Below are positions 32,682 to 63,105 of a stretch of 64,000 nt of DNA, one piece after another; the first letter of the stretch is position 1; every line of letters begins with the position of its first letter. The DNA is from an uncultured Armatimonadetes bacterium (GTDB lineage Bacteria > Armatimonadota > UBA5829 > DTJY01): positions 3,168,001-3,232,000 of the forward strand of contig OY970325.1 in assembly GCA_963717145.1 (NCBI GenBank), written 5' to 3'. The notes below the pieces were generated by a model. The model had not been told where the DNA came from, searched no databases, and was given only the letters and a program-made list of their open reading frames with translations. A program made the position numbers and the translations under genes.

Positions 32682-33611
32682 TTATCCCCTTTGCTGCCTG
32701 CCACAGTCCGATACTTCGGCGCGGATGACCTCCAGGGCGTGAGGGAGGATCGTCCGAAGAAGAGCCGAGCCCTCCTCGACCGCACGTCTGCTTCCCGGTA
32801 GATTGATGATGAGCGTCCGACCCCGCAATCCGCTCACTCCTCGGGAAAGGCACGCGTAGGGCGTGTGGCGCATTCCCTCCTGCCTCAACGCCTCCGATAT
32901 CCCCGGCGCGGGCGATTCGATGACCGCGAGCGTCGCTTCGGGCATTCGATCTCTCTCGGCAAGACCGGTACCCCCGGTCGTGAGAATGACGTCGACGGCG
33001 CATCGGTCCGCCAGGAATGTCAGTCTCTCGCTCAGAAGGCGTTCATCGTCGGAGAGGACGCTGTAGTCGGCAAGTGCGACGCCCAGGTCCTCGAGCAGGC
33101 CGACGAGCACGGGACCGCTCTCATCCTCCCGCTCGCCTCTCGAACATCGGTCGCTCGACGTGAGGACCGCGCCCACTTTCAACGCGGTCGGTTCGATCGA
33201 ATCGCCCGGTGAAATGCCCCCGCCGCGGAGGACTTTCGCGAACACGCCTTCCCGGGGCATAATGCAGTCCCCCAGGCGCTTGCCGATGCTGCACGGCGAA
33301 TGGCACACCTTCCCGATCTCGGAGATCTGGAGGATCGTCTCGCCCACCTGCAGCCGGGGTCCGATGCCCATCGAGATCAGGTCGATGCCCTGGACGGTCA
33401 AGTTCTCGCCGAAGTCGCCAGGGTTCAACTCCATTCCCTTGGCGCGCCCCTTGTCGATCGATTCCTCTGAGAGCAGGCTCACCTGCTTGCCCGCACCGAA
33501 GTGAGCGTCGCCCTCGACACCCTGACCGGCGACAAGGGTCACAGTGGCGGTCGGTAGCTTCTTCTCGCCCTTATTCGGAGCTGTGTTAACGGAGACTACT
33601 CTGCCTTGCAT
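32682..33611 (-). CDS. MOSC domain + MogA/MoaB molybdopterin adenylyltransferase fusion
   Basis: GDAH, PGDFGENL, CIMPREG; then SDRCSRGEREDESG, TTGGTG, INLPGS. Confidence 0.9.
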   Translation of the reverse strand: MQGRVVSVNTAPNKGEKKLPTATVTLVAGQGVEGDAHFGAGKQVSLLSEESIDKGRAKGMELNPGDFGENLTVQGIDLISMGIGPRLQVGETILQISEIGKVCHSPCSIGKRLGDCIMPREGVFAKVLRGGGISPGDSIEPTALKVGAVLTSSDRCSRGEREDESGPVLVGLLEDLGVALADYSVLSDDERLLSERLTFLADRCAVDVILTTGGTGLAERDRMPEATLAVIESPAPGISEALRQEGMRHTPYACLSRGVSGLRGRTLIINLPGSRRAVEEGSALLRTILPHALEVIRAEVSDCGRQQRG

Positions 33612-34090
33612 GACTCACCCTCGCGCTCGAAGTGTCCGCTCTTTCCGCCTGCTTTCTCGACGAGACGGATATCGCTGATCGTCGCCTCCCGGTCTATCGC
33701 CTTCACCATGTCGTATATGGTGAGTGCCGCGATCGAGACGGCGACGAGCGCCTCCATTTCGACGCCGGTGCGCCCGTGACACGAGACACGCGACTCGATC
33801 TCGACACTCGATCGATCGGCGCACAGTGTAAGTCCTATTTCCACGCTGTCCAGGGGGAGACTGTGGCACAGCGGAATGAGTTCGTCGCACCGCTTGGCGG
33901 CCATGATGCCGGCGATTCGAGCGGTGGAGAGGACGTCACCCTTGGCGACACGGTTCTCGGCGATGGCATCGAGTGTCGGCTGACGGACATAGACCGTTCC
34001 CCGAGCCCTCGCATAGCGCTCTGTGATCGGCTTCTCTGAGACATCCACCATTCGGGCCTTTCCACTCTCATCGACGTGCGACAATTCCAT
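33596..34090 (-). CDS. moaC: Cyclic pyranopterin monophosphate synthase
   Basis: LSHVD, MVDV, LIPLCH, TGVEMEAL, TIYDMVKA, GGKSG. Confidence 0.96.
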   Translation of the reverse strand: MELSHVDESGKARMVDVSEKPITERYARARGTVYVRQPTLDAIAENRVAKGDVLSTARIAGIMAAKRCDELIPLCHSLPLDSVEIGLTLCADRSSVEIESRVSCHGRTGVEMEALVAVSIAALTIYDMVKAIDREATISDIRLVEKAGGKSGHFEREGESCKAE

Positions 34091-34109
34091 GATTCGTCTC
34101 CCTTGCGAC

Positions 34110-34192
34110 CCTTGATTCCCGTAGGGGCGATCCTTCAACGGTCGCCATTTCGACGGGCGACCGTTGAAGGATCGCCCCTACGGGAATCAAGG
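34110..34192. repeat. GTAG-type REP doublet, family A
   Basis: CCTTGATTCCCGTAGGGGCGATCCTTCAACGGTCGCC...GGCGACCGTTGAAGGATCGCCCCTACGGGAATCAAGG. Confidence 0.87.
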
Positions 34193-34926
34193 CTACAACA
34201 ACTTGACCGCAGCAGTCACGAGAACTGCTGCGAGTACTCGACACAGCGTCAAACTGGAGAAGGTCCTGGCTCCAAGGCTGGACCCAGCAGTCCTCCGGCC
34301 AACGCGGCCAACGGCAGTACGGGAACGATACCGAAGTCTGCATTGTGGCTTATCACCCGACTGCCGAGGCCCGCAATCGAGTTCACGACGATGAAGAACG
34401 CCGATGTCGCGGCAATCTGCTTTGCATTTCCCCACCGCGCGAGCAGCGCCACGGGACTCAGGAAGATCCCGCCTCCGATTCCTACGATTCCCGACAGAAG
34501 CCCTATGAAGCCGCCAAGCGGTGCGGCCAGGGGAAGTCGAGGGGGACGAACCTCCCCCTTACCTATCAAGGGATTCAGCAGTCCGGACAAGCGGACCGCC
34601 GCCACGATCAGCGCAAAGGCAAGAAGCAGCGAATATGCCCTCTCCGGCACATCGATCGCCCCTCCGATAACGGCCCCTGGTATCGACAGCACGATGAACG
34701 GCCAGGTGAGACCAAGGCTGAAATGCTTCGAGTGACAGAAGCTGAGGCAGGCAGTCCCGGCTACCAGGATATTCAGCACCAGAGCCGTCGTTGCCATCTC
34801 AGCGCGTGGTATCGCAAGCAGAGAGAGAACCGCCAGATAGCCGGATGCTCCACCGTGCCCGACGGAAGAGTAAAGCGCTGCGACCGCAAATATCAGTATC
34901 GGCGCCCAGATCGGTAATCCGTCCAT
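34193..34926 (-). CDS. TauE/SafE-family transporter (missing base near 34283)
   Basis: YSSVGHGGASGY, GIGGGIFLSP, ATSAFFI; the last helix lies in the frame ending at 34193. Confidence 0.87.
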
Positions 34927-34929
34927 GAT

Positions 34930-36150
34930 TCACTCGAAGAAGATGATTTGCAGGTCTTGACCCGACGCCACGTCGCCGGAATGCTCAGGAATCACGACGT
35001 ATGAGTTCGCGCCGACCATCGAACTCAACCTGCCCGAGCCCTGCATCCCGGCGGGAGTCGCAACGTACCTGCCGTTCTCCCATTTCGTCGTCGCCCGGAC
35101 GAACTCCCGGACGCCGGGTTTGTGCCTGACGTTGCAGGTCACGGAACCTGAGACGGTCGCGTAAGTCGCGGACTCGACCCCCATCATGCGCCCGATCGCC
35201 GGGCGTACGAACAGGTCGAATGTCACCATCGACGAGACCGGATTGCCTGGAAGCCCGAAGAGCGGCACGTCCCCGATGCGACCGTAGGCGAGCGGCTTCC
35301 CCGGCTTCACGGCGACCTTCCAGAACCGCATCTCGCCGAGCTTGGCCAGCGTCTCCTTGACGAAATCGTAATCGCCTACCGACACACCGCCCGATACGAT
35401 GATCAGATCGGAAACCGCCGCTGCCGATGTCAAGACGCGCTCGAGTTCATCCCGCTCGTCGATGACCCGCGCGGTCAGCGACACCTCCGCGCCTGTCTGG
35501 AGCACCTGCCCGGAGAGAGAGTACTGGTTGCTGTTTCGTATCTGGCCGGGACCCGGAGATTCCGATACATCGACTAACTCGTTGCCCGAGGTGATGACCG
35601 CCACTCTGGGCTTCCTGTACACCATCACCTGAGCCTTCCCGAGGGCAGCCAGCATTCCCATCTCAGCGGGCCTGACGCGGACGCCTGACCTCAAGACCAG
35701 CTCGCCACGCTTGACATCTTCTCCCGCGGGCCTGACATTCCATCCCTGCCCGACTTCTCGGAGGATACGAACCGCTCCCTCACGGCGCTCAGTATCCTCC
35801 ACCATGATGACGGCATCGGCGCCTTTGGGAACGGGCGCGCCGGTCATGATCCGAACCGCCGTGCCCGGAACGACTACCTCGCTCACCATGACGCCGGCCG
35901 GCGCTTCCGCGATGACTCGCAACTCCCTCAGCGAGTCCTTCCCCGCCCCGACGGTGTCCGCGGCGAGAACGGCATACCCATCCATCGCCGAGTTGTCGAA
36001 GGGCGGGAGGTCACCGTCGGCCCGGATGTCCTCCGCCAGGATTCGGCCAAGGGCGTCCCCGAGGGCGACTACCTCAGAGCCGAGCTTGGGGGTGCTGCTC
36101 AGTATGGTCTCCAGGGCCGCGTCAGGACTCATGGGCGCGTTGTCGTGCAT
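34930..36150 (-). CDS. moeA: Molybdopterin molybdotransferase
   Basis: PPFDNSAMDGYA, IMTGAP, SGGVSVGDYD, KPGKP, LPGNPVS. Confidence 0.96.
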   Translation of the reverse strand: MHDNAPMSPDAALETILSSTPKLGSEVVALGDALGRILAEDIRADGDLPPFDNSAMDGYAVLAADTVGAGKDSLRELRVIAEAPAGVMVSEVVVPGTAVRIMTGAPVPKGADAVIMVEDTERREGAVRILREVGQGWNVRPAGEDVKRGELVLRSGVRVRPAEMGMLAALGKAQVMVYRKPRVAVITSGNELVDVSESPGPGQIRNSNQYSLSGQVLQTGAEVSLTARVIDERDELERVLTSAAAVSDLIIVSGGVSVGDYDFVKETLAKLGEMRFWKVAVKPGKPLAYGRIGDVPLFGLPGNPVSSMVTFDLFVRPAIGRMMGVESATYATVSGSVTCNVRHKPGVREFVRATTKWENGRYVATPAGMQGSGRLSSMVGANSYVVIPEHSGDVASGQDLQIIFFE

Positions 36151-37210: not shown

Positions 37211-37864
37211 TCAACCGCGTGAGACCATTATACCCCGGCGCGGGAAAGGGATCAATTCCATTGAGGCGGATGAGCACACATCGATGAAGGCCCGGTTTGC
37301 GGAGTCACGAGGAAGGAGCATTGGATGCACCGGGATCACCCTCCCTGTGTTTCTGAGCAGACTCGAAGGATCGCCGGCCGCGTGACCGGTGGGAACATTC
37401 AGTGCCACCAGATCGATCCGGTCGAGACACCTTAGCGCAGACGGTTTGACCTCCTCCACGCCCCCTCTCGCCACGAGAACGTTCAATCCATTGAGCAGAG
37501 GAATCGCAGTCGTGCTCTCGACGATGACTCCCGGTGCGTCCGATAGCTGGTCGAGCGCCGACTCCAGGGCGGCCGGAAGTGACTCCGGGAGCGAGCGTAT
37601 CCACAGGACGCGGTCCGCTCCGGCCTCGAGTAACAGAGCGGTGTCCTTGCCCCGACGGGCGATGGCCGTCGGGTCGGCGATGACCGCGAAGGGCCCGTCA
37701 GGAGGCGAACACGCGCCGCAGTCCTGGCCGTGCGGGCAGATCTCGTCGGGAAGAGAAGGGGTGACCTTGATCGCGGCCCAGCCGGGAAAGGCCCTGAGCA
37801 GCAGAGCAGCCACCGCTGTCTTACCGCAGTGAGCTGAAGCTCCGCCAATGCAAATCAACTTCAA
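37211..37864 (-). CDS. MobB-like P-loop protein with Cys cluster
   Basis: GGASAHCGKT, CPHGQDCGAC, GKDT..LLEAGA, VIVES. Confidence 0.6.
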   Translation of the reverse strand: MKLICIGGASAHCGKTAVAALLLRAFPGWAAIKVTPSLPDEICPHGQDCGACSPPDGPFAVIADPTAIARRGKDTALLLEAGADRVLWIRSLPESLPAALESALDQLSDAPGVIVESTTAIPLLNGLNVLVARGGVEEVKPSALRCLDRIDLVALNVPTGHAAGDPSSLLRNTGRVIPVHPMLLPRDSANRAFIDVCSSASMELIPFPRRGIMVSRG

Positions 37865-40557
37865 TTTGAAACAACCTCCACAACAGCGGCCGCAACCTTG
37901 TACTCCGCCGTCTTTGTAATCGGATCATGGGCATCCGTCGTCAGCTCGTTTGCCGCCGATTCGGCAAAATGGAACGGCATCCAGATCTGGCCCGGCCTCA
38001 CCTTCTTCGTCGCCCACGCGCGCGCCGTGATGCTTCCCCGTCGAGTGCTCACCCGAAGCATTTCCCCGCTCTGAGCGCCGAGCTGCTCGAGGTCGCGCGG
38101 ATGGATCTCCACAAAGCAGTCCGGCGACTTCTCAGCCATCCCCTTGACCCTGCGCGTCATCGTCCCAACGTTGTAGTGATATAGGATTCGGCCCGTCGTG
38201 AGCAGCCATGGATACTCCGAATCGGTCGGCTCACTCGGCGGCGAATACTCGACCGGCGCGAACTTGCCGAGACCACAGGCGAACCCATCCTCGTGCAGGC
38301 ATACTGTTCCGGGATGCTCCTCATGCGAGCACGGCCACTGAAGGCCGATCTTGTCGATTCTGGGGTAGTTGACACCTGCCAGCATCGGCGAAAGGGCCGC
38401 TACTTCGTCCCATATCTTCTCAGGAGAAGCGAATCTCATGTCCCCGCCCAGTCGGTTGGCGATCTCCATGATCACGCGCCAGTCCTCGCGCGCCTCACCC
38501 GGCGGCTCGACCGCCTTCCGAACGCGTTGGACGCGGCGTTCGGTATTGGTGAATGTGCCGTCCTTTTCCGCGAAACACGATGCCGGAAGGACCACATCGG
38601 CGATCTTGGCCGTCTCGCTCATGAATATGTCCTGGACCACAAGGAACTCCAGGTTGCCGAAAGCTTGCCGCACGAAGCTCGAATGGGCCTCGGACATCAC
38701 GGGGTCCTCCCCCATGACGTAAACGGCCTTCAGTCGGCCCGCAGCGGCCTCCTCCATCATCTCAGTGATCGTCAGCCCGGTCGACGTGGGCAGCGGCTTG
38801 CCATAGGCTTCCTCGAACTTCCGGCGGTTCGCCTCGACGGCGACCTTCTGGTAACCGGGGTACATGTCCGGCATTGCACCCATGTCGCACGCGCCCTGCA
38901 CGTTGTTCTGCCCTCTGAGCGGGTTGATTCCGCTGCTCGGCTTGCCGATCTGACCGGTGAGAAGCGCCAGGTTCGCGAGCCCTCGGACATTGTTGGTGCC
39001 GCAGGTGTGCTCGGTTATCCCGAGGGTGTAATAGATCGCCCCGCGGTCCGACTGAGCGTACAACCGTGCCGCTTTGCGGATATCATCCGCCGGCACTTCG
39101 CACATCTCCGCCGCGCGCTCGGGCGGCCACTGCTCGACGATCTTGAGGAACTCCTCGAATCCTTCCGTGCGCGACTTGATGAACTCCTCGTTCGCCAGGC
39201 CCTCGTGGACTATGACGTGCGCCATCCCGTTGATCAGCGCCAGGTCGGTGCCCGGGCGGATCGGCAGATGGATCGCCGCGATCTTGGTCAGCCATATCTT
39301 GCGGGGGTCGGCGACGATCAGTGTTGCGCCGTTGCTGACGGCCTCCTTGATCTTGAGACCGATGATCGGATGCGCCTCAGTCGGATTAGCCCCGATGACG
39401 AACAGCACGTCGGCGTCCGCTATCTCACCGATCGAGTTCGTCATCGCCCCGCTTCCGAGTGAAGCGGCCAGACCGGCCACTGTGGGAGCGTGTCAAGTAC
39501 GGGCGCATTGGTCAACGGAATTCGTTCCGATGACCGCACGCGCCAACTTCTGCATAAGATAGTTCTCTTCGTTCGTACACCGGCTGGAACTCATGAGGCC
39601 GATGGCATCCGGGCCGTCCGCTGCCTTGATCTCCTTCAACCGACCCGCCACGAGATCGAGGGCCTCGTCCCATGAAGCCGGCCCAAGCTCTCCATCGCGC
39701 CGGATCAGCGGAGTGGTAAGACGGTCCGGATGATGGATGAACTCGTAGCCGAACCGACCCTTCACGCACAGCCATCTGCCGTTTACCGGGTTGTCGGTGG
39801 CCGATGTGACACCGACTACGCGACCATCCCTCACGTTCAGGTCGAACTGACAGCCGACTCCGCAATAGCCGCAGGTTGTGCGAACCTTCTTCGCTCCCAC
39901 GAGGCCGACCATCCGGCGGGCCATGACGGCGCCTGTCGGGCAGACGGCGATGCAGTTGCCGCACAGTTCGCACTCGGACTCCTCACGGACGAGCCCAGGG
40001 GGGAGACCGATCTCGGTATCGAAGCCGCGCCCCTGGAAGTCGATCGCTCCGGCCTGCTGCACGTTCTGGCATACCAATACGCACCGACCGCACAGGATGC
40101 ACTTGCTGTTCTCCTCGGACATCATCGGAGCATCTTCGGATACCGTGTGGGAGGAGACTCCAGTCGGCGATGCCTTTCTCTCGCGGAGGCCGAACTCGTA
40201 CGCATACTCCTCAAGAACACATTCGCCGGATGTATCGCAGGTCGCGCAGTCATGCGGGTGGTCCGAGAGCAGCAGTTCGAGCACCGTCCGACGGAACCCG
40301 CGGAGGGCCTCGGTGTCGGTGTGAACGACCATTCCCGGAGACACCGGATGGGTGCATGACGCGACGGGACTAGGCCCGGCTTCAACCTCGACCAGACACA
40401 GACGGCACGAAGCGGTCGGCGGCAGGCCGAGGTCTGGGTCGTAGCAAAGATGAGGGATGTCGATGCCCGCTCTCCGGGCGGCTTCGAGGATCGTCATGCC
40501 GACGGAAGCGGTGACCTCTCTGGAATCGATCGTCAGCGTAATCTTGTTCTCAGTCAT
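37861..40557 (-). CDS. fdhA: Selenocysteine formate dehydrogenase alpha subunit
   Basis: Two ORFs in one frame joined by TGA at 39493-39495 in CART-U-HAPTVAGL; FeS N-terminus, CGYCGVGC, LRGQNNVQG, molybdopterin dinucleotide-binding C-terminus. Confidence 0.93.
39464..39495 (-). promoter_or_regulatory. Sec codon and bacterial SECIS hairpin
   Basis: TGA-12 nt-GTGGCC-GGTCT-GGCCGC, like the fdhF SECIS. Confidence 0.8.
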
Positions 40558-43600: not shown

Positions 43601-43716
43601 AAAGCGACGCAGCCGGTCCCGCCACAGATGGTGACCATCTTCCGGTCGGAGCTGATCTCTGCCTTCAGCCGGTCCTGCCACTCCCGGAAAGCCGATGCTG
43701 AGGAAGCCTGCTTCAT
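40648..43716 (-). CDS. NuoF/HydB-like NADH-FMN subunit fused to a GltD/NfnB-like FAD-NAD(P)H module
   Basis: GRGGAGFP, CNADEGDPGAFMDR, VCGEETAL, ESCGKCVPC; then CGRACDHPCE, GSGPAG, GGGNAAID, YRR, EARRCLRC. Confidence 0.92.
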   Translation of the reverse strand: MKQASSASAFREWQDRLKAEISSDRKMVTICGGTGCVAFGASGVKKAFEDEIKRRGLECDIPVKITGCHGFCEKGPVVVILPAKVFYPSVQAEDVPEIVERTVLSDEVIERLLYVDPATDRKIVHDHEVPFYARQQRIVFRLNGILDPISLEDYVARGGYAAAAKALCDMTPEQVIDEVREAGLRGRGGAGFPAGVKWGFCRKAVGEPKYLICNADEGDPGAFMDRSLLEGTPHAILEGMIIAGYAIGAAKGIIYVRAEYPLAVKNTEIALDQVRECGLLGTDILGTGFDFDIEIDRGAGAFVCGEETALIASLEGRRGMPRPRPPFPSISGFMGKPTNINNVETLANVPIIILQGKDYYRSFGTEGSKGTKIFALAGKVRNTGLVEVPMGATLRQIVFDIGGGIPRDRKFKAVQMGGPSGGCVPAQYLDLPIDYDSVKQVGAIMGSGGLIVMDEATCMVDMARFFADFVQRESCGKCVPCRIGTKRMLEILTRITQGEGELSDIDELEKLGEAIRRASLCGLGQTAANPVLSTIRYFRDEYEAHIIEKRCPANSCEALITTTCSSACPAHVNVPEYVGLIAEGRFAEALDVIRRRNPLPSVCGRACDHPCEVFCRRGDIDAPVAVRQLKRFVTDHVTDSGHPPTWTGPRRGRVAVIGSGPAGLTAAYFLAIMGHEVKIFEALDAVGGLLAVGIPPYRLPKEVLQRDIDYIVRAGVEIETGHRIESLESLAGFDAVFVATGAHKSTTLGIPGEEMKGVHDALSFLRQAIVGEIKELSGRVVVIGGGNAAIDAARTALRLGAGPVTILYRRTREEMPALSEEIEDALAEGVELHTLVAPVAIEGSGRVQAVRCQEMMLGDADEGGRRRPIPKPDFDVLIEADHVIMAIGQGPELDFAQTDGRLVVARGRIVADPVSQRSGEGEVFAGGDAVTGPATIIEAIAAGQKAAKAIDVYLGGSGELPADTALATDAKPDEEYGAVPRQAVCHLSPRERACVFDEVVHGYSAETACLEARRCLRCDLEE

Positions 43717-51818: not shown

Positions 51819-52604
51819 TTATCGGTTTGCTTGGCTCCCGACGACGGGGGTCGCCGGGGAAACACCGATTCCTGTTAGTATCTCTTCGATTGCCGAGACT
51901 GCTTCAGACTCAGGGGGCAACCCGAGAAGCGGCTTACTGCTTAGCTCCAGTTCCCTCACAAGCGGGTCCTCGGGGACGCAGCCGATGAGTTCGAGCCCCG
52001 TTGCCGACATTGCCTGTTCTTTCGAAAACGATCCCGCGGGCGTTCGATTGACGATGAGCCCCATTCGCCCCTTCACGATGCCGAACTGCGTCGCCAACCC
52101 TGAGATTCGCCGTGCCGCCTGCAGACTCGTCGGCGTCGGATCGCTGACCACCAGCATCAGGTCCACCTTGTCATTCGTTCGACGGCTCAGGTGCTCCATA
52201 CCCGCTTCGTTGTCCAATACCACGTGCTTGTATCTCGACGACAACTCCTGCAGGAACGTCCGGAGCATATTATTGAGCGAGCAGTAACATCCCGGTCCTT
52301 CGCCTCGCCCCATGACGACCAGATCGAACCCGTTGCCTTCTACCAGTGTCTGCTCAACCTGGTACTCGACGGCGCGCTGCTTCGGAACGCCCGCAGGAGC
52401 CTCGTATTTGTTATGGAGGGCATCCTCCCTGATATCGCCTATCGTGACGTCAACCTTGACGCCCAGCTTTTCGGCGAGCGTGCTGTTGGGATCGGCGTCC
52501 ACGGCCAGCACCGGCGTCTCTTGCCGACCTATCAGGTACCGGACGACGAGCGCGGCCAGCGTCGACTTCCCCACCCCACCTTTTCCTGCGACTGCGATAA
52601 CCAT
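51819..52604 (-). CDS. acsF: CooC/AcsF Ni-insertion ATPase
   Basis: GKGGVGKS, DADPN, GPGCYC, DNEAGMEHLSR. Confidence 0.9.
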   Translation of the reverse strand: MVIAVAGKGGVGKSTLAALVVRYLIGRQETPVLAVDADPNSTLAEKLGVKVDVTIGDIREDALHNKYEAPAGVPKQRAVEYQVEQTLVEGNGFDLVVMGRGEGPGCYCSLNNMLRTFLQELSSRYKHVVLDNEAGMEHLSRRTNDKVDLMLVVSDPTPTSLQAARRISGLATQFGIVKGRMGLIVNRTPAGSFSKEQAMSATGLELIGCVPEDPLVRELELSSKPLLGLPPESEAVSAIEEILTGIGVSPATPVVGSQANR

Positions 52605-54542: not shown

Positions 54543-55877
54543 CTATTCCGACTTCCACATCGTCTTGAGATACTTCGGAATGCTGGAGGACTCGCGCGGG
54601 CCCACAAGGACCTCCCATCCGGACTCCTCCTGAAGGCTTCCGCTCATGACGGTTATGTAGCCAGGTATAATGACTTTTCGGTGAGCGACTTTGCTCGTCA
54701 CCTCGTCGCTGTTCAGGAACTGCGCCACCTTGGCGGCGGTCAACTTCTCAGATGCCCATGCCGTCAGGACAGACGTTCCTTCCGTGTCGATGACCCCGAC
54801 GTAGCACGGTATTCGGCTCGCCTCGACGTCGCTCTCAACCGTGTAGTAGGTCAACGAGAAGTTCGTGGTGATCAGAAGCGGCGACTTATCGGTTACAGCG
54901 CCGATCTGGTACAGCTTGGGCTCAACCTGCACCGGCTTCCTGGGATCGGTGAAGATGTTCATGCGAACAGTCAACAGCGGGAGAATCCGCCAGGGCTCCG
55001 CGGTGTCAACGACGACAATGCCCGCGTACTTGGCGATGAACGTTCCCGCCTCCGCCAATGCCAGGTCCTGATCCTCGGTCGAAGGCATCGCCATGCAGGG
55101 ATATCCGAGTGGCCGGAAATTCTTCTTCAGGCTCAGTCGGCGTACTTTGGTCAGCGCCTCGACTGTCTCGGCAAAGCAGGCTGAGGTAACATCCAGGACG
55201 AGTTGCTGAACGCCCGCGCCCGCCAGCTTCTGTGTCAGTCCCGCTGCCTGATCGAGGCTTGACGCATCGACCGCCAGCGGGCAGCACTTCGCCTTCGCCA
55301 GAGCCGCCAGTTGCTCCCAGTTCTCTGCATCCGCGCGGAAAATCAATGGGTTCTGGTCCGCGCAGATGTCGAGAGCGGCGGAGAGCGCTTCAGGGTTCTT
55401 CGACATCAGGATGAGCGCCAACCCAGACTGGCTCGCGGCGGATACCGCGCTGACGAACTTGTCCTTATCGCCCGAAACATTGTCCACCGCGATCATATCG
55501 ACCGCGATCTTCTGGCCCACTCTCTCGAAGCTCAATGCCTTCACGGCATCGACGGCGGCCTGGATATCCGCGACGTCGTCTCCGATGCGGACGGCGACAC
55601 CTGTGGGGTGGTAGAAGGTCTCATCGTGGCGGAAGAGAACCGTCTCATTCCCCACCTCCACCTTCGCGTCACCCTTCCCGATAGTGACGAGGCGAACCGG
55701 CGGCTCGGAAGCACCCTCGAGAGCGGCGAGCGCCTCTGAGGTGATATCCGGGCACTGGTCGATGCTGGCTTTCTTTGCGGCCAGTTGCATCGCAAACGCC
55801 AGGCAAGTCGGATGCCCGCACTTCGCACAGTTCGTCTTCGGCAGATGCTTGTACACGTCCAGAGCTTTGAGAGCCAT
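54543..55877 (-). CDS. acsC: Corrinoid FeS protein large subunit
   Basis: LPKTNCAKCGHPTCLAFA, FRHD, NIFTDP, TTNFSLTY, SVLTAWA, VGPRE. Confidence 0.96.
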   Translation of the reverse strand: MALKALDVYKHLPKTNCAKCGHPTCLAFAMQLAAKKASIDQCPDITSEALAALEGASEPPVRLVTIGKGDAKVEVGNETVLFRHDETFYHPTGVAVRIGDDVADIQAAVDAVKALSFERVGQKIAVDMIAVDNVSGDKDKFVSAVSAASQSGLALILMSKNPEALSAALDICADQNPLIFRADAENWEQLAALAKAKCCPLAVDASSLDQAAGLTQKLAGAGVQQLVLDVTSACFAETVEALTKVRRLSLKKNFRPLGYPCMAMPSTEDQDLALAEAGTFIAKYAGIVVVDTAEPWRILPLLTVRMNIFTDPRKPVQVEPKLYQIGAVTDKSPLLITTNFSLTYYTVESDVEASRIPCYVGVIDTEGTSVLTAWASEKLTAAKVAQFLNSDEVTSKVAHRKVIIPGYITVMSGSLQEESGWEVLVGPRESSSIPKYLKTMWKSE

Positions 55878-55910: not shown

Positions 55911-56050
55911 GCAGGGGCGAAGCATTGGCTACCGGCATCAGTGGACGCTGTCATTCTGAGCGAAGTGAAGAATCTGGCTTCTTCAGCCGGTTGCCAGATT
56001 CTTCACTTCGCTCAGAATGACAGCGTAGGCAGCCAATGCTTCGCCCCTAC
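55911..56050. repeat. Nested palindromes: GTCATTCTGAGCGAAG element inside a G(T/C)AGGGGCG REP
   Basis: Outer arms 55911-55933 / 56028-56050; inner arms 55945-55978 / 55993-56026. Confidence 0.88.
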
Positions 56051-56063: not shown

Positions 56064-58245
56064 CTAGAACAGCGGATCCAACTCCAGCGCCGGATGCCCG
56101 ACCTTGGTCAGATATTCCAGCAGCTCCTCGGCGGTCTCCGCGCACGTCTCATCGGCGATCTTGTCGGCGATATCGGGGATACCGATCTCTATGCCTCGCG
56201 CATCGAGCTTTGATCGCAGGAAGTCCTTCAGCTCCTTAGGCATCCAGACGAGCCGCTGTAATCCGCCATCGGCGGAGATGAACTTCTTGCTTGTTACGTA
56301 CAGCCGGCCGACGCCCAGGAACCCGGGAGTCTGATTGCCGCCGCCGACTGAACCCGCCAGCGTGGAGAACGGCATGCCGCACGGCGTCATCCCGGGATAC
56401 TCGCGATTGACGATCATCAGGCCGTTGGCTTCCGGCACGATGGCCATGATGCACTCGAAGCAGCCGCACGAGGTCATCGGGTCTTCCATCACCGAGTAGA
56501 GGTTCATATGCTCGATGGACCTGTTCGAGTGATCGTAGACGAACTGGTTGATCCCTTCCCACTGGCCCTTTTCCTCGTCGATGGTCCGTCCTTTGAGAAT
56601 CGGCTGGTTGCAGCCGACGGGGTTGATCTCGAATCCCGCCTTGCCGTCGAGCCAGTTGTATGCGCCGCACAGTCCGAGCCGCTCGGGGCTGATGACACAC
56701 ACGTGCGCCGGCGCATAGGACTGGCATAGCGTGCAGGAGTAGAATGTGTCCACGCTCTCGTCGATCATGCCGGCGATCCGGTCGTCGCGATACGCGTAGG
56801 TGGCCATCGCCTCCGGGAGTAGTTCATCGATCGCCTTCTGGTCGGTGATGACGGTGACCTGAATCTTGTCCACGATAGCACCGTAGTCGTCGTGCAACTT
56901 CGCGTGCAGGATGGTGCCGAAATGCTTGAGCCTGAATCCCTTGGCAAAGGCTTCTTTGCTGATTCGTACCCAGATCTGGTTTCGCTGACCCATGTGGAAG
57001 ATGCCCATCGCCTCGTTGATGAACGAGTGGACCTGTCGTTCCATGATCGACTCGAAGTCCTTCTGCATCTTTCGGCCGGCGATCTCGATGAGGATGCCGA
57101 GCGGCATGGCGCTCCCGACCTCGGCGGTGTCGACATCCGGGCCGATCAACTCGACCTTGCCGTCCTCGATCTGATCCGCGTCCTTCGTTCTGCAGATACT
57201 CGAAGGCCGTCGAATACTTGCCGCCGAACTCGACCTGCATGTCCTCCCTGCGCACTCGCTCGCCTTCGAAGGCTGCCGCGAACGGAACGGGGATGTCCAG
57301 GTCGTGAACCTTGATCTTGACGCCTCTGACTTCGACGCATCTCGGGACGATCTTGCTGTGATCGAGTTCGTGCACGACATGCTCGAACGTGCAGATGCCT
57401 GTCGGGAGGATCTCAGGAATCGGGGTGTCGGCGATGACAGGGAATCCCATGTTGATCGCACCGGCGCCCGTCGCATACTTGATGTCGTCGACCTCGCCGA
57501 GCGTCAGACCGAATGCGAAGACTCGGTCCTTGCAGTATAGCAGAGCCTTGCGCGCCTCGCCGGGCTTCACGCCGCCGAATGTGAGCGCGCCGCGGATCGC
57601 CCAGTGCAGGGGATAGATGCCGGTGATGGTGTCTCGGCCGTAGGGTACGATGTACGTATCCCAGCCCATCTCGACCTTGGCTTCCTTGAGCTGGTCGACG
57701 ATGCTGATGCCGTTGGTGCTCGATCCGACGAACGACAGAATGCTTCTCTTCTGCAGCTCACGAACGATGTTCACCGCGGTCTCGGTGTCAGGGGCGGCTC
57801 CGAGTATGGCCGCGAACCCCGGCATTCGTCCGTCAACCAACTGAATGCCCAGAGTCCTCAGGATGGTATCGGAGAAGAATCCGTTGCAGTCCGGCTGGGG
57901 CTCCGTCGCCGTTGCAGATATCGGATCGCGACGATGATCTCTTCGGCCAGCATCGTCGCGATGCCCGAGTCGAGCGCGTCGCCGAGATATGGCAGCCACA
58001 GACTGTCGGATGGCAACTGCGGCAGCAAGATCTTGGCAGTGGTCAAGGACCGGCTTCACGTCGCCCAGGGTCTTGACCTCTATCCCCATCAGTGCGTTTG
58101 CCATGGGGAAGAAGAACGCGGTTTCCGGGAACCCGACCTTGGTGTCCTCTCCCTTTGACTCCCGCGCTTTGCTCCAGGCCTCATCGGCCTGTGATACTAC
58201 GTCGTGTGCGCCTCGAATTGCTGCACTGGCTATGATCTTTGACAT
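56064..58245 (-). CDS. acsB: Acetyl-CoA synthase (indels near 58036, 57903-57915 and 57193)
   Basis: LGIQLVDGRMPG, CTLCQSYAP, PERLGLCGA, PMTSCGCFEC, GGGNQTPGF. Confidence 0.93.
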
Positions 58246-58344: not shown

Positions 58345-58417
58345 GCCGACCGCTTATCTCTCGGTCGGTCGCCGACCGTCTATCTCTCGGTCGGTTGCCG
58401 ACCGACTATCTGTCGGC
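58345..58417. repeat. Tandem 26-nt self-palindromic repeats (two full, one partial)
   Basis: GCCGACCG-nnTATCTC-TCGGTCGGT units at 58345, 58371, 58397. Confidence 0.85.
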
Positions 58418-59704
58418 ACAGAGCAGCACCTCGCGGTACTCAGGCTCCGGGAACTTCTCCCGCTGATCGCCTATCAAGGGCATGATCGTCGCGAAACCAA
58501 AACTGCTGTCCAGCAGCCGATCCTTGATCGACGAAATGTCCACTTTCTTCCGCATAAGAGTTCCATAGACGCCGGCGCTGTCGATCTCGCCGACGAGCAC
58601 GGCTCCGACCACATCGTTGCCATCGAGGACAACCTTCCGGAAGACGTCTTTCTTCTCGCTGAACCGAGTGAGTATCTCATAGTCCGACGGCGACTTGGGT
58701 TTGACCAGTCCGATCGAGATCAGCGGCAGTCCGAAGAACTCGGCGGAGTTCATCCGCATCGAGCCAAGATACTCCTGATGCTGACCGGCCATGTTCGCGC
58801 CGGCGATCCGTCCCTGCTCGGCCGCTGCCGGCCAGATGGCGTTGACTGTTTCTTCGCCGGTCACCACGTCCATCGTCTCCGCCACGTCGCCGGCGGCATA
58901 GATGTCGGGGACGTTCGTCTTCAACTCGCTGTCGACCAGGATGCCCCAGTGCGTTCGGACTCCCGCGTCGCGTACGAGATCGATGTTGGAGTTGACGCCT
59001 TTGCCGACCACGATGATCTGGCAGTCGAGCTCGGTTCCATTCTCGAGCTTAACGCCTTCGACCTTGTCATCTCCGAGCACTTCGGTGACATCCGTACCGG
59101 TCACGACCGATATTCCGTTCGCCTCGAAGCGTCGGCGGAAGATCTCACCTGCCTCGGCATCGGCGATCTGCGAGAGCAGGTGTGGAGATCGGATAACCAC
59201 CGTGACCTTGAGCCCCATCGCATGGAGTCCGCTCGCCGCCATGAGGCCGACACATCCGCCGCCGAGGACGATTGCGCTCCCAGCGGTCTTGGCAACGCGA
59301 AGAATGCCGTGGAGGTCCATGGTAGTTCGGAAGCCGAAAACGCCATCCTTGTCCATGCCGGGAGTTTTGGGGATCTCCGGCGAGCCGCCCGTCGCGATCA
59401 GCAGCTTGTCATAGTTCAGCGTGTCGCCGTCGTCGAGCAGCAGGGACTTTTCATCCGGGTGGACCGACACAACACGCTTGCCCAGGAGAGCCTCGAAGCG
59501 GTTCGTCTCATAGTAGTCCTTGGGCCGGTACAGCATGTCCTCCTCGGAGATCTTACCTTCCATGAAGTATGGGATCAGACATCTGGAGTAGGCCGGATAG
59601 CTCTCCGCCGAGATGATCGTGACGGCTCCATCGGCATCCAGAGCGCGGATCGCCTCTGCTGCGTTCAGTCCTGCGGCGCTATTACCTACGATTATGTAAT
59701 GCAT
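58406..59704 (-). CDS. FAD/NAD(P) oxidoreductase (CooF-associated)
   Basis: GNSAAG, YSRC, IATGG, GGGCVG, YAAGDVAE. Confidence 0.92.
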   Translation of the reverse strand: MHYIIVGNSAAGLNAAEAIRALDADGAVTIISAESYPAYSRCLIPYFMEGKISEEDMLYRPKDYYETNRFEALLGKRVVSVHPDEKSLLLDDGDTLNYDKLLIATGGSPEIPKTPGMDKDGVFGFRTTMDLHGILRVAKTAGSAIVLGGGCVGLMAASGLHAMGLKVTVVIRSPHLLSQIADAEAGEIFRRRFEANGISVVTGTDVTEVLGDDKVEGVKLENGTELDCQIIVVGKGVNSNIDLVRDAGVRTHWGILVDSELKTNVPDIYAAGDVAETMDVVTGEETVNAIWPAAAEQGRIAGANMAGQHQEYLGSMRMNSAEFFGLPLISIGLVKPKSPSDYEILTRFSEKKDVFRKVVLDGNDVVGAVLVGEIDSAGVYGTLMRKKVDISSIKDRLLDSSFGFATIMPLIGDQREKFPEPEYREVLLCADR

Positions 59705-59716
59705 CGTTGTCTCCCC

Positions 59717-60205
59717 TTACCTGGGTACAGTCTCAGGAATCTTGCTTTCCTTCTGATCTTCTTCGAACTCTTCGAACTCCTCATAGTGCAGCGCATGGGT
59801 CGGACAAGCCGCCACGCACGCAGGATCGTCGTGTCCTTCGCATAGGTCACATTTCAGCGCCTTTTCAGACTTCATGTCCGGGAACACCGCACCGAACGGA
59901 CAAACCATCACGCACATCCAGCAGCCGACACATTTGTCCCGATCGATCAGCACCTTGCCGGTCAACGGATCACGATAGGTCGCGCCGGTCTTGCATGCGT
60001 CGATGCAGGCGGCGACCTCGCAATGATGGCACCTCAGAGGGAACGGTCCCAGCTCTGAACTCCTGATCTTCACCAGCCGCTTGGGCCCGGATTCTTCCAG
60101 CAGCGCGCGGTAGAAATCGCCGCTCTTCGAGTGTCTGACCGCACAGGCGATCTCGCATGCCCGGCATGACAGGCACTTGCGACTATCACAATAGACTCTG
60201 GCCAT
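59717..60205 (-). CDS. cooF: CooF-like polyferredoxin (four 4Fe-4S motifs)
   Basis: CLSCRACEIAC, CHHC...CIDAC, CVGCWMCVMVC, KCDLC...CVAAC. Confidence 0.9.
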   Translation of the reverse strand: MARVYCDSRKCLSCRACEIACAVRHSKSGDFYRALLEESGPKRLVKIRSSELGPFPLRCHHCEVAACIDACKTGATYRDPLTGKVLIDRDKCVGCWMCVMVCPFGAVFPDMKSEKALKCDLCEGHDDPACVAACPTHALHYEEFEEFEEDQKESKIPETVPR

Positions 60206-60225
60206 CGCTATATCCTCCTCCGGAC

Positions 60226-62164
60226 TCACGCGGAAACGGCTGCTTCCTCTTTGTTGGTTTCCGACAGCATCGGTCGGAGCTTGAGCGCGGCTCGCTTCTT
60301 GTTGATGTGCTCGATCATCATGCCCGCTGCCTTGATCGGATCTATCTCGAAGGCGAACTTCCCGCCGTATTCCTTCTCGATGCCTCCGCAGATGTAGTCG
60401 GTCAGGTTCTTACTCCCGAGGACGGGATGCGGAGAACCGAAGATCGTGTAGAGGCCCGAAGCAACGACATAGAAGCCGATCGAGATGGCCTTCTCGCTCA
60501 TCCATTCCGGGGCGGCGCCTGCTACGGGAATATCGCTTATATCCTCGCCCAGGCCGCCTTCCGCCAGAACATTGCACAGAGCGATGAGTATGCGCGTGTT
60601 GTCCACGCATGCGCCCAGGTGCAGCACCGGTGGAATGCCGACTGTCTCACAGATCTCCCGCAGTCCCGGGCCGGCGTACTTCGGCGCCCTCAGGAGAGAG
60701 CAGCCCCGTCTTCGCACATGCGATTGCGGCACATCCGGTCTGAACCACGAGGACATCGTTCTTGATGAGTTCCATCGTCATGTCGAGGTGAGCGGAATCT
60801 TGGCACACATTCGGGTTGTTGCAGCCGACAACGCCGGCCAGCCCGCGTATTCGGCCCTCGATGATTGCATTGTTGAGTGGCCGATAGGTGGAGCGGTATT
60901 TCCCGCCAAGGAACTGGAAGACGTTATCCGCCGTGAAACCTGCCACCAGGCCCTCCCTGATATCAGGGATCTGCACGCCCGCCTTCTCACGATTGGGGAA
61001 GTTCTCCACTGCCAGGCGAACTATCTGCTTGGCGATCTCCAGGCCACGCTTCTCATCGAACTCGATGTGAGTCACTTCTGCCGGGAACCGGGATTTCGGG
61101 GAAGTGGTGACCAGCTTGGTGTGGAAGCACTTGGCGATCTCGGTCAGACCGGGCATGACGCACTGCACGTCCACGATCATGGCATCGACCGCGCCGGTCA
61201 GCATCGCCAGTTCCTGCGACAGGAAGTTGCCGGCCACAGGGACCCCGTGGCGCATCAATATCTCGTTCGCCGTGCAGCAGATCCCGGCGAGGGTGATCCC
61301 ATTTGCGCCCTTCTCCTTCGCCAGCGCGAGGAGTTCCGGGTCGCGGGAAGCGGTCACGATCATCTCGGACAGCGTGGGCTCGTGACCGTGGACGACGATG
61401 TTGACCTCGCCTTCCTGGAGCACGCCCAGGTTCACCTGGGATCGAACGGGAGTCGGCGCACCGAACAGGATGTCGCTCAGCTCGGTGGCGAGCATGGATC
61501 CGCCCCACCCGTTCGCCAGCGCGGTCCGAATCCCATGGGAGATCACGCTCTTGTAGTCGTTGTCGACGCCCATGGTGGAGATGTCCATCAACTGGACGAC
61601 TTCACGGTCGATACCCCGCGGGGTGACTCCACGCTCCTGCCATAACTTCTGTCGCTTCTCAGGCGCGCGTTTCACGAACCGAAGCTGCCCGTGCTGCCTT
61701 CCGAACTCCTCGAAGGCGATCTCGGCGACCTTGCCCGCAATCTTGTTGATGTCGAGGCCCTTGGTGTCTATGCCGAATTCCTCAGCCAGCGCGCGAAGCT
61801 TCTCCGGGTTCTTGATCTGGTATCCCCCGGTTTCTCCTTGTCCGGCCATCAGGAGCGCCTCGGCAACATCCCGTCCGTGGTCGCCGTGCGCAGCCGTGCC
61901 TGCTGCGATCATTCTGACCAGGTTTCGGGCGGCAATCGTATCGGCATCGGCGCCGCAGACCCCGGTCTGAGGGCCTTCGCCAAACGGATCTATTCGACAA
62001 GGACCCATGTTGCATATACGGCAGCAGACTCCGAGCTTGCCGAATCCACACTGGGGCTGCATAGCGTCCCAGCGATCAAAGGCGGTCGGAATCTCGGCCT
62101 CGGCCGCGCGATCGAGCATCGCTTGTGCGGCGGCATCGGCAGTGCGTTTCTTCTTCGAATCCAT
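60226..62164 (-). CDS. cooS: Ni-CO dehydrogenase catalytic subunit (extra base near 60688)
   Basis: CGFG...CCRICNMGPC, HGHEP, GICCTANE, DVQC, GCNN, GACVDN, PEWMSEK. Confidence 0.95.
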
Positions 62165-62189
62165 GATCTGTATCTCCTCTGTCGGGCGG

Positions 62190-62960
62190 CTAACCCGTCT
62201 CTTCCAGTAAGCGGGCTATGATCTTCTCAATCGCATCATTGACCGCGGGCAGACTCGCCTGCGGTGCGCGTCCTTCAATCTCGGCCAGACGCAGGGCTTC
62301 ATCATACGGTATCACACCCAGAACCGGCATTGGGGCCACGGAATGCTCCAAAAACTCGGTTTCCTGATCGCTGCGACTCTTGCTGCCGATCACTCCTACG
62401 TGAGTTATGCCGATATCGGCGGCAAGCGACTGAATGCGCTTGGCGGTCTCGACGCTTTGCCGCGTGGGTTCGGCAACTACCAGCAACCAGTCTACACCAG
62501 AAGCGGTGCCTCTGCCAAGGTGCTCGACACCCGCTTCCATATCCATAATAAGGACATCCTGTTCGCTCAGCAAGAGATGGGATACCAGGTTCTTAAGGAA
62601 GACGCTCTCGGCGCAATAGCAGCCGGATCCACCCTTCTTGACCTCGCCCATACGCAGCAGTGCAACCCCTTCATGCTTCGCAGCAAACTTGTCCGCGACA
62701 TCCTCGACGCGAGGATTCAGCTTGAAGAAGCCTCCCGGCGTTCCAGGCTTTGCCCCGGTACGTTCCTCTATGAGTTCAGTCATCTCGCTGAGGGGAACAA
62801 TGCAATCCGGAGAGGGAAATCCCAGGCAGGATGCCAAAGTCGCATTCGGATCCGCATCGACCACCAGAACTCTGTGACCAGTTTTCACAAAGGCGGTTGC
62901 CAGCAGCGCGCAGATCGTTGTCTTTCCTACTCCACCTTTGCCGGTTATCGCTATTTTCAT
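62190..62960 (-). CDS. cooC: CODH nickel-insertion ATPase
   Basis: GKGGVGKTT, DADPN, FFKLNP, GSGCYC, DMEAGVEHLGR. Confidence 0.93.
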   Translation of the reverse strand: MKIAITGKGGVGKTTICALLATAFVKTGHRVLVVDADPNATLASCLGFPSPDCIVPLSEMTELIEERTGAKPGTPGGFFKLNPRVEDVADKFAAKHEGVALLRMGEVKKGGSGCYCAESVFLKNLVSHLLLSEQDVLIMDMEAGVEHLGRGTASGVDWLLVVAEPTRQSVETAKRIQSLAADIGITHVGVIGSKSRSDQETEFLEHSVAPMPVLGVIPYDEALRLAEIEGRAPQASLPAVNDAIEKIIARLLEETG

Positions 62961-63076
62961 ACGTACATTATCCCGCTGAGTTGCCCCGGCTCAAACACCA
63001 GGCAGCTTTTCAGCCCCAACGGCTGACATCGATGACACCACGGGCTTCCGCTGGTGTCATCTTTGTCCTTTTTGTA

Positions 63077-63105
63077 ACAATATCACTCGTTTCCGCGATT
63101 GTCAA
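63077..63105 (-). promoter_or_regulatory. sigma70 promoter of the cooC-led cluster
   Basis: TTGACA-17-TATTGT with extended -10 TG. Confidence 0.65.

Follow-up and report, generated by a model that had tools for sequence, protein, structure and literature searches.

We analyzed a 64-kb stretch of DNA from an uncultured Armatimonadetes bacterium (contig OY970325.1, positions 3,168,001 to 3,232,000; hereafter, the window) and found 26 co-directional genes covering ~30 kb of its minus strand, from 63105 to 32682, that comprise Wood-Ljungdahl (WL) genes, the genes of a selenocysteine (Sec)-containing formate dehydrogenase (FDH), and molybdenum cofactor (Moco) genes. We interpret this cluster, with a probability of about 0.7, as a native Armatimonadota gene array that is composed of at least two modules and whose nine single-base insertions are probably consensus errors of the assembly.

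A preliminary description made from the sequence had proposed such a cluster, and NCBIfam and Pfam scans combined with start refinement recovered every gene that it named (Table 1), the count of 26 including a 73-aa Zn-ribbon open reading frame (ORF). Using refined starts, we counted 17 junctions (of 25) at which neighboring genes overlap or lie at most 25 nt apart, in line with the tight packing described earlier; the remaining eight gaps measure 28, 34, 48, 51, 90, 158, 160, and 186 nt. The genes for AcsB, AcsC, AcsD, and AcsE were all found and are adjacent, in the order also present in Armatimonadota and Omnitrophota loci (see below). The earlier gene list was correct as far as it went; it had left unreported the C-terminal part of pta, which ends on the same strand 277 nt upstream of cooC, the tRNA-Ser(GGA) gene at the other end of the cluster, and long perfect hairpins in two internal spacers.

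The supposition that the host is Armatimonadota-like was supported by three proteins. The best 120 relatives of Ffh (2769–4106), the single marker used for host placement and one read by record labels, were 68–100% identical, and all 13 organism-named relatives among them came from Armatimonadota or Armatimonadetes metagenome-assembled genomes (MAGs) at 70–84% identity. For AcsD, a scan of one genome per GTDB species, which requires exact 8-residue words and therefore leans toward near relatives, returned 24 loci. The closest two were Armatimonadota MAGs (79% and 78%), followed by Omnitrophota (54% and 49%), a Clostridiales MAG (50%), Desulfobacterota and "Pseudomonadota"-labelled MAGs (46–51%), and Dehalococcoidia/Chloroflexi (38–42%). 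Among the best 120 matches to the C-terminal 376 aa of AcsB, those with names were Armatimonadota (83, 80, 77, and 73%), "bacterium ADurb.Bin429" (80%), Planctomycetes (75%), Latescibacteria (69–73%), Verrucomicrobia (72%), Lentisphaerae (71%), and Kiritimatiellia (69–70%). In a quick maximum-likelihood AcsB tree of 42 rows (23 named or top sequences of the 120 matches, 18 loci, and the window), the window fell into an 11-row clade with an SH-aLRT (Shimodaira-Hasegawa-like approximate likelihood ratio test) value of 95, the named members of which are three Armatimonadota and ADurb.Bin429; two more Armatimonadota rows adjoin with Latescibacterota, so that the phylum does not form one clade. The left half of the window reads ftsY-ffh-rpsP-KH-ylqD-rimM-trmD-rplS-lepB, an order that we take to be typical of Bacillota and their relatives. 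Assignment of the host to Armatimonadota is thus supported by its predicted proteins.

Local tblastn of the window proteins against the 24 AcsD loci revealed how far the gene order is shared. The first Armatimonadota locus (L001) reads cooS-cooF-oxidoreductase-acsB-acsC-acsV-acsF-acsD-acsE-DUF3786-DRTGG, the second (L002) covers acsB to DRTGG, and two Omnitrophota loci (L003 and L004) have the acsB/acsC-acsV-acsF-acsD-acsE core as in the window. The window (49958–47930), L001 (11797–13688), and L002 (6937–8732) all carry the DUF3786 and AAA_26-DRTGG genes where the acs module ends on its 3′ side, and a DRTGG homologue also follows acsE in L004. The preliminary description had considered that Desulfobacterota might share the window's order; the ten sufficiently long Desulfobacterota-type loci read acsD-cooS-acsB-acsC-acsE instead, with cooC next in seven of the ten, and Dehalococcoidia loci have a third order. 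What lies beyond DRTGG is a Zn-dependent alcohol dehydrogenase gene in L001 and, in L002, glycoside hydrolase genes on the opposite strand, so that the methyl-branch/FDH/Moco genes are linked to the acs genes in neither of the two Armatimonadota relatives, both of which are short contigs. Judged from gene order, the array is made up of at least two putative modules, a conserved acs module (cooC to DRTGG) and an appended methyl-branch/FDH/Moco module.

The acs order of Moorella and Carboxydothermus is reportedly cooC-acsA-acsB-acsC-orf7/acsV-acsF-acsD-acsE followed by metV-metF. Compared with this arrangement, the window has the same backbone of cooC, carbon monoxide dehydrogenase (CODH), acsB, acsC, acsV, acsF, acsD, and acsE, with metF and metV downstream on the same strand, and differs in that cooF and an FAD/NAD oxidoreductase gene lie between the CODH gene and acsB, hdrABC-mvhD is absent, metF precedes metV, the DUF3786, DRTGG, and Zn-ribbon genes are inserted, and fhs, FDH, and Moco genes are appended. 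The predicted gene order is an extension of the Moorella-type acs backbone.

Clusters combining methyl- and carbonyl-branch genes are also known from Clostridium, where the sections of Shin et al. 2016 (PMC5039349) drawn on here describe a single WL cluster and report that acsB/C/D/E/F were always clustered in 14 acetogens; that cluster contains fchA/folD and lacks FDH and Moco genes, the opposite of what we found in the window. Similarly, Inoue et al. 2019 (PMC6344411), in the part considered, list Ni-CODH in four Armatimonadetes genomes, describe a unit of CODH, CooF, and an FAD-dependent NAD(P) oxidoreductase (FNOR), stating that this type of FNOR had not been the subject of any reported biochemical work. 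The window's cooS-cooF-oxidoreductase trio resembles this unit but stands directly upstream of acsB, which suggests that the same CODH is presumably the partner of acetyl-CoA synthase (ACS).

The preliminary description had suggested a lineage not usually regarded as acetogenic, which is not supported. According to Carlton et al. 2023 (PMC10290634), who report 77 MAGs, the WL pathway and acetogenesis occur in two Armatimonadota classes, "Hebobacteria" and "Zipacnadia"; the pathway is complete in 7 of 13 Hebobacteria, and Zipacnadia use Pta-Ack; the part of Nou et al. 2024 (PMC11535203) considered here adds a partial pathway (the methyl-branch core) in a third lineage, Thermosaccharophagaceae. 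The WL pathway in Armatimonadota is therefore already in print, and the capability of the cluster is known for the phylum. Relative to Hebobacteria and Zipacnadia as presented there, the window shares the phylum label, WL genes together with Pta, and the inferred anaerobic acetogenic or electron-sink use; in contrast, its genome measures 5.37 Mb and also carries a quinol-type nitric oxide reductase (qNor; 20367–22682, minus strand; NorB with a cytochrome c-like domain plus COX1), a hint that strict fermentation or acetogenesis is not the host's way of life. The sections of Carlton et al. drawn on here give no operon architecture, and the sections considered from the literature on phylum plus pathway contain no description of the 26-gene arrangement, which we do not claim to be unpublished.

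Several observations weigh against our interpretation. The acsV match (643.9 bits) falls below the NCBIfam cut-off of 800, strong hairpins lie within two internal spacers, and folD/fchA, ackA, moaD/moaE, selABCD, and an energy-conserving complex are not in the window; the preliminary description had rightly noted that folD/fchA, ackA, rnf, and ech are missing, none having been found among the window ORFs scanned against NCBIfam and Pfam. Moreover, seven of the nine insertions are in three key WL genes that make up ~5.8 kb of the 64 kb, at odds with a uniform error rate, and in the 14 kb that the window shares with L001 and L002, cooS and acsB carry five insertions, whereas the remaining 9.5 kb is free of them. 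Finally, the frame model used to locate insertions (see below) gives false alarms in low-complexity regions and may miss short shifted stretches.

The spacing and hairpins bear on whether the array is one operon behind one promoter, as first described, or two to four adjoining transcription units brought together by juxtaposition (cooC to FNOR; acsB to DRTGG and the Zn ribbon; metF to fdhA and the mobB-like gene; moaA to moaB), an alternative to which we give only slightly less than even odds. A sigma-70-like site does stand at the upstream end, coinciding with the end coordinate (63105) given earlier, and is a plausible candidate transcription start, a scan of the region having yielded 8 such sites versus 5.9 ± 2.4 in shuffled sequences (no enrichment); an inverted repeat just downstream of its −10 element may act as an operator or form a hairpin in the leader. 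A single promoter for the whole array is conjectural, given that hairpins occur internally and that the two relatives' clusters end before metF. Separate units would fit the spacers of 160, 186, 158, and 90 nt, the perfect hairpins of 28 bp and ~37 bp in the acsB-acsC and tauE-moaC spacers, a promoter-like site (10/12; 37255–37227) just upstream of moaA, and the fact that both Armatimonadota relatives have DRTGG as the last gene of their acs module. They fit less well with the 17 junctions that overlap or are ≤25 nt long, which include stop/start overlaps both within and between modules, and with the DRTGG-to-metF gaps, which shrink to 12 and 48 nt once the Zn-ribbon ORF is counted. In addition, terminator-like sites are no commoner than in shuffled sequences, and the hairpins, which have no U-tracts and are members of repeat families spread over the genome, may serve RNA stability or be repeat elements instead of terminating transcription.

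Altogether, 12 hairpins in the window have perfect arms 16 bp or more in length; they belong to at least three sequence families (family pairs 34110 with 5936, 17258 with 25233, and 29654 with 31120), and these look like REP (repetitive extragenic palindromic)-like elements of the host genome. The acsB-acsC spacer of L002 carries a perfect 14-bp hairpin (L002 627–739), so a hairpin at this place may be a conserved feature. One near-perfect palindrome of 61 nt (36540–36600) lies inside moaA, where it takes up codons 201–221 without breaking the frame; the matches to two MoaA profiles are each interrupted near residue 195, as would be expected if a palindrome had been inserted in frame into a loop. 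An Rfam scan of the whole window at gathering scores returned tRNA only, with no Moco, tetrahydrofolate (THF), cobalamin, or Ni/Co riboswitch. A permissive scan of 32–64 kb added SECIS_3 (see below) and microRNA-like matches, and the latter were discarded as long palindromes.

As deposited, the reading frames of the catalytic subunits CooS and AcsB are interrupted. Frameshifts in fhs, acsB, and cooS had been reported before and are indeed present; however, they are more numerous than described, amounting to nine frame breaks in five genes (one in cooS, four in acsB, two in fhs, and one each in M48 peptidase and Spy-like genes outside the WL set), and they are most likely technical. All nine are single-base (+1) insertions, with no deletions. 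In cooS, the extra base lies at ~60680–60700, where the intact L001 sequence shows a 1-nt gap relative to the window; acsB is split at ~57190 (within ~57180–57205), again with a 1-nt gap in L001, and has further extra bases at ~58022–58030 and, twice, within 57900–57917. When a 94% identical relative was mapped onto the window, ~40 codons between ~58028 and 57905 proved to be open but to have an unrelated translation, the homologous peptide continuing in the +1 frame, briefly in the +2 frame, and then in the original frame, which points to three additional single extra bases within ~120 nt. The shifts in fhs are at ~46036–46049 and ~45267–45273, and the gene is one open frame in all 11 loci that hold its three pieces. 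Outside the cluster, on the (+) strand, a BepA-like M48 peptidase gene carries an insertion at ~30640–30650, its THP...R end (which we take to be a conserved motif at the end of M48 peptidases) continuing in the +1 frame at ~30646, and a Spy/Metal_resist-like periplasmic protein gene carries another at ~31703–31726, where the Metal_resist profile match ends (position 100 of 125) and a Met/Gly-rich tail continues in the +1 frame.

A coarse frame plot of G+C at third codon positions was too noisy, and we employed a three-state codon-usage hidden Markov model (HMM) trained on 13 clean genes instead. This frame HMM recovered all breaks in cooS, acsB, and fhs, whereas the 20 further cluster genes tested with it gave no shift; in the left half of the window, it flagged the M48 peptidase and Spy-like genes, and inspection confirmed both. 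Likewise, sliding-window identity against L001 and L002 uncovered no hidden shift in cooF, the oxidoreductase gene, acsC, acsV, acsD, acsE, DUF3786, or DRTGG, flagging just a divergent acsF C-terminus and one N-terminus. An HMM flag in the anti-sigma gene was a false positive, with frame 0 holding the transmembrane helix, and flags at the 5′ ends of ftsY, yraN, RR, AP_endo, STN1, STN2, and EncB were due to over-extended starts. The nine sites share no common sequence motif by eye.

If the frameshifts were real, cooS, acsB, and fhs would be recent pseudogenes of a pathway being lost in a facultative, qNor-carrying lineage, which we consider distinctly unlikely. This alternative would account for the concentration of insertions in catalytic WL genes noted above, over the whole window as well as in the region shared with L001 and L002, and it draws on the presence of qNor and on the intactness of relatives (the 120 listed AcsB matches are 676–755 aa long, mostly 725, and fhs is whole in 11 of 11 loci), meaning that the breaks are specific to the window sequence. 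On the other hand, nine insertions out of nine have a chance of ~0.002 under equal odds, and bacterial mutation is generally deletion-biased. Neither in-frame stops nor large deletions occur, and conservation of the shifted frames is high (over its C-terminal 375 aa, AcsB shares 94% identity with an intact relative of 725 aa); acsC, acsV, acsD, acsE, and metF are undamaged, unlike in neutral decay of an abandoned pathway; the same type of insertion occurs in two unrelated genes; and three insertions within 120 nt resemble a patch of poor consensus. The uniform sign, the patchiness, the conservation of the shifted frames, and the involvement of unrelated genes make consensus errors of an insertion-prone, long-read-type assembly the most likely explanation, rather than gene decay, and the single 5.37-Mb contig itself suggests long reads.

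Composition and repeats are continuous across the window. Tetranucleotide frequencies of 1–32500 and 32700–64000 correlate with r = 0.97, compared with 0.91 when the left half is itself divided in two and with values of −0.12 to 0.89 for other loci (highest for the Armatimonadota L001), G+C is 58–63% throughout, and the hairpin at 34110–34192 in the cluster has arms of 25–28 nt that are 100% identical to those of the hairpin at 5936–6026 in the ribosomal-protein block (rimM-trmD). Given this shared composition and repeat family, there is no sign of chimerism, a concern raised in the preliminary description, and both halves appear to be one native chromosome rather than a chimera or a recent island. 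The alternative that the cluster is an island of recent transfer, or that the assembly is chimeric with its junction at tRNA-Ser (32.68 kb), has in its favor that this gene adjoins the cluster end, tRNA genes being common integration sites, and that Planctomycetota, Latescibacterota, and Planctomycetes-Verrucomicrobia-Chlamydiae AcsB sequences interleave with Armatimonadota in the tree, but it is largely refuted, and very improbable, in view of the correlation over the junction, the host repeat family on both sides, and the Armatimonadota labels of both marker and WL relatives. Specifically, the window contains no integrase and no tRNA-derived direct repeat, a search with tRNA-Ser giving one unrelated 15-mer match with one mismatch. 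A promoter-like site (32542–32570) precedes the tRNA-Ser gene.

The FDH genes contain the least ordinary part of the cluster. The large subunit gene, fdhA, consists of two ORFs joined in frame by a TGA codon (39495–39493) in the conserved context ...CART-U-HAPTVAG..., and profile TIGR01591 matches with positions 1–127 upstream and 135–672 downstream of it (674 bits; cut-off, 666). The Rfam Sec insertion sequence (SECIS) family SECIS_3 (RF01989) matches over its full length from the UGA onward at 46.2 bits, below the gathering score of 63, with E-values of 5e-10 in a 151-nt search and 1e-7 in a 32-kb search. The minimum free energy of the 69-nt SECIS stretch is not better than that of shuffled sequences (z = −0.77). 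Its apical hairpin presents a GGUCU loop 18 nt after the UGA and appears to resemble the SECIS of Escherichia coli fdhF. We accept the TGA as a predicted Sec codon. The N-terminus of FdhA is NuoG-like (Fer2_4, NADH-G_4Fe-4S_3, Fer4_Nqo3, and Molybdop_Fe4S4), and its catalytic part is closest in the PDB to F420-dependent, hydrogen-dependent CO2 reductase (HDCR), and FdhH-type formate dehydrogenases (E-values of 1e-169 to 1e-146).

Upstream of fdhA, next to a NuoE-like gene, lies the gene for a 1022-aa fusion protein. Residues 25–545 contain PF01257, PF01512, and PF10589, and residues 25–562 match the B subunits of bifurcating NiFe and FeFe hydrogenases and of NfnABC/Stn (E-values of 1.5e-232 to 1e-198; best HydB-type match 7t2r_B at 1.5e-232), while residues 563–1019 match the GltD-like part of 9bov_A, 9n5u_A ("NfnA"), and 8oh5_C (1e-116 to 1e-97). 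The alignment with HydB ends at about 542 of 597, and next comes a Fer4_20 domain that belongs to the GltD module. Most of the best 120 relatives found with the C-terminal half are ~1020 aa long and have PF01512 and PF07992, and those with names come from Armatimonadota/Armatimonadetes, Planctomycetota/Phycisphaerae, and Methylomirabilis. A frameshift artefact was ruled out by these two-domain relatives of ~1020 aa and by the single frame in the HMM. The HydB-GltD fusion is the least ordinary part of the cluster, though it is widespread.

The sections of Schut et al. 2022 (PMC9304861) drawn on here treat Fdh-Bfu and Nfn-Bfu as classes of the Bfu family; they show no HydB-GltD fusion, and the word "fused" is absent from them. 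No biochemical study of the fusion was found there or in a literature search directed at Bfu enzymes. Like Bfu enzymes (HydABC, Fdh-Bfu, and NfnABC/StnABC) in that source, the window's FDH has NuoE-like and HydB-like subunits and a NuoG-like N-terminus in the large subunit, and it shares with NfnABC/Stn a GltD-like NADPH module. In the solved Nfn/Stn structures (8oh5_C, 9bov_A, and 9n5u_A), this module is part of the large NuoG/HydA-like subunit, whereas in the window the HydB-like subunit carries it as a C-terminal fusion, apparently in place of HydB's C-terminal ferredoxin domain, and a predicted Sec-FDH forms the large subunit. From these subunits, we infer that the FDH would be an NAD(P)H-linked cytoplasmic enzyme, possibly a bifurcating one. 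More tentatively, and rather doubtfully, it could represent an undescribed Bfu/HydABC architecture in which Sec-FdhA, a NuoE-like subunit, and a HydB-like subunit with a GltD/NfnB-like module serve both NADH and NADPH, or ferredoxin confurcation. If so, one enzyme would unite an FDH and an Nfn/Stn-type transhydrogenase, and the fusion is the sole part of the cluster with some prospect of new biochemistry.

The Moco genes mobA, moaA, moeA, moaC, and MOSC-MoaB were clearly identified by NCBIfam, and moaD, moaE, and moeB were without a match in the window; the cluster thus encodes most enzymes for synthesis of the bis-molybdopterin guanine dinucleotide cofactor of the FDH. A 217-aa ORF had no Pfam or NCBIfam match of its own, on which ground an FdhD identity was rejected. 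Its family comprises 746 representatives at E ≤ 1e-3, and 23 of 48 aligned members match Pfam MobB (PF03205; best E-value, 1e-9). Against the PDB, the family profile matched MobB chains only weakly (E-values of 0.016–0.96), and the AlphaFold model (predicted local distance difference test score, 90.4) found other SIMIBI P-loop nucleoside triphosphatases (NTPases) as its best Foldseek hits (template modelling scores of 0.4–0.5). With moderate confidence, we regard the ORF as a divergent MobB-like NTPase.

Taken as a pathway, the cluster would supply three methyl-branch steps through Fhs and MetF/MetV. The FDH, wired to pyridine nucleotides via its NuoE-like and HydB-GltD subunits, would reduce CO2 to formate using NAD(P)H, possibly with ferredoxin; formate would be activated by Fhs and reduced to methyl-THF by FolD (encoded elsewhere) and MetFV. 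AcsE would then pass the methyl group to the corrinoid iron-sulfur protein (CoFeSP), and AcsB would condense it with CODH-derived CO and CoA. The adjoining pta places the step from acetyl-CoA to acetyl-phosphate next door, and Pta would link the two. The window sequence is compatible with flux in either direction, toward CO2 fixation or an electron sink as well as toward oxidation of acetate or CO. A functional CODH/ACS is predicted at reduced confidence, the broken frames being probably technical. If the genes are intact in the cell, the cluster would be an almost self-contained CO2-to-acetyl-CoA module on one strand that includes the FDH and its cofactor genes, and the near-closed 5.37-Mb genome would offer a template for pathway organization and expression outside Bacillota. 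A caution for users of the deposited sequence is that, because of its insertions, automated annotation would list cooS, acsB, and fhs as pseudogenes and score the pathway as absent.

Table 1. Genes and sequence elements of the cluster and its borders, with the matches on which each assignment rests
Feature	Position	Strand	Evidence or remark
pta (phosphotransacetylase), C-terminal 253 codons	63238..63999	-	Pfam PTA_PTB E 3e-66; NCBIfam pta TIGR00651 E 1.9e-59; 5′ end outside window
Sigma-70-like site TTGACA-17-TATTGT, extended -10 TG, 10/12	63077..63105	-	consensus match only
16-nt inverted repeat, 88% complementary, 11-nt spacer	63025..63067	-	just downstream of -10
cooC-type Ni-insertion ATPase	62190..62960	-	CbiA/MinD-class P-loop; name given by position
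cooS (Ni-CODH catalytic subunit)	60226..62164	-	TIGR01702 in two pieces, N-terminal 520.6 bits (above cut-off 478) + C-terminal 126.2 bits; one extra base
cooF-like 4Fe-4S ferredoxin	59717..60205	-	NCBIfam; 74-77% to L001
FAD/NAD(P) oxidoreductase, FNOR type	58406..59704	-	Pyr_redox_2 E 3e-59; PadH-like E 7e-98
acsB (acetyl-CoA synthase)	56064..58245	-	NCBIfam; four extra bases
28-bp perfect hairpin, acsB-acsC spacer	55945..56026	-	z -8.5
acsC (CoFeSP large subunit)	54543..55877	-	NF003195 572.7 bits, cut-off 306
acsV (corrinoid reductive activase)	52604..54523	-	NF040756 E 2.5e-193, 643.9 bits
acsF (second CooC-type ATPase)	51819..52604	-	NCBIfam, Pfam
acsD (CoFeSP small subunit)	50836..51804	-	NF003376 434.3 bits, cut-off 280
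acsE (methyl-THF:CoFeSP methyltransferase)	50010..50801	-	NF005719 301.7 bits, cut-off 259
DUF3786 protein	49272..49958	-	PF12654 E 3e-27; kept in L001 and L002
AAA_26 + DRTGG protein, like N-terminal domain of long Pta	48164..49270	-	NCBIfam, Pfam; kept in L001, L002, and L004
73-aa Cys-rich Zn-ribbon ORF	47930..48151	-	Zn_ribbon_NUD E 8e-6
metF	46925..47881	-	PF02219 E 1e-33
metV	46509..46925	-	PF12225 E 3e-23; start overlaps metF stop
fhs (formate-THF ligase)	44811..46480	-	three pieces tiling profile positions 2-557; two extra bases
mobA	44203..44805	-	NCBIfam
NuoE/HydC-like 2Fe-2S subunit	43713..44225	-	NF005722 144.3 bits, cut-off 141
1022-aa fusion, HydB/NuoF-like flavoprotein + GltD/NfnB-like NADPH module	40648..43716	-	NCBIfam, Pfam, PDB matches
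fdhA, NuoG-like N-terminus + Mo/W-bisPGD domain, predicted Sec at TGA 39495-39493	37861..40557	-	NCBIfam, Pfam
SECIS element (putative)	39440..39498	-	RF01989 46.2 bits, full length, under gathering score
217-aa divergent MobB-like SIMIBI P-loop NTPase (probable)	37211..37864	-	family, model, Foldseek
moaA	36151..37200	-	TIGR02666 303.7 bits, cut-off 284
moeA	34930..36150	-	E 1.3e-123
TauE/SafE-family membrane protein (tauE)	34249..34926	-	PF01925 E 1.5e-25
~37-bp perfect hairpin, tauE-moaC spacer	34110..34192	-	z -13.4; repeat family of 5936-6026
moaC	33596..34090	-	NF006870 228 bits, cut-off 162; refined start
MOSC + MoaB/Mog-like fusion, final cluster gene	32682..33611	-	NCBIfam, Pfam
tRNA-Ser(GGA), encoded CCA	32590..32681	+	convergent; ends one base from cluster's last stop codon
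12 hairpins	5936-6026, 9618-9703, 17258-17349, 20183-20273, 25233-25297, 28521-28612, 29654-29712, 31120-31202, 32012-32103, 34110-34192, 36540-36600, 55945-56026		

Elsewhere in the window, a nikR gene for a nickel-responsive repressor (13–465, minus strand) stands next to a LysE-type exporter gene (523–1287, minus strand), and the two are possibly relevant to the nickel supply of CODH/ACS. Close to the tRNA-Ser end of the cluster, we found a gene for an EncB-family ferritin-like encapsulin cargo protein (31982–32533, plus strand; likely start near 32135; NF058679, 103.5 bits, cut-off 90). Its neighbors include no recognised gene for an encapsulin shell, and a 45-bp perfect palindrome (32012–32103) lies just upstream. 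An ECF (extracytoplasmic function) sigma factor, a zf-HC2 anti-sigma factor, and two STN-domain proteins are encoded at 25430–29646 (plus strand), the STN-domain proteins having no recognised secretin or TonB-receptor barrel. The ORF "u310" (23151–24083) is probably not a gene. A TIGR03790 protein is encoded at 10069–11157 and SbcCD at 11196–14527.

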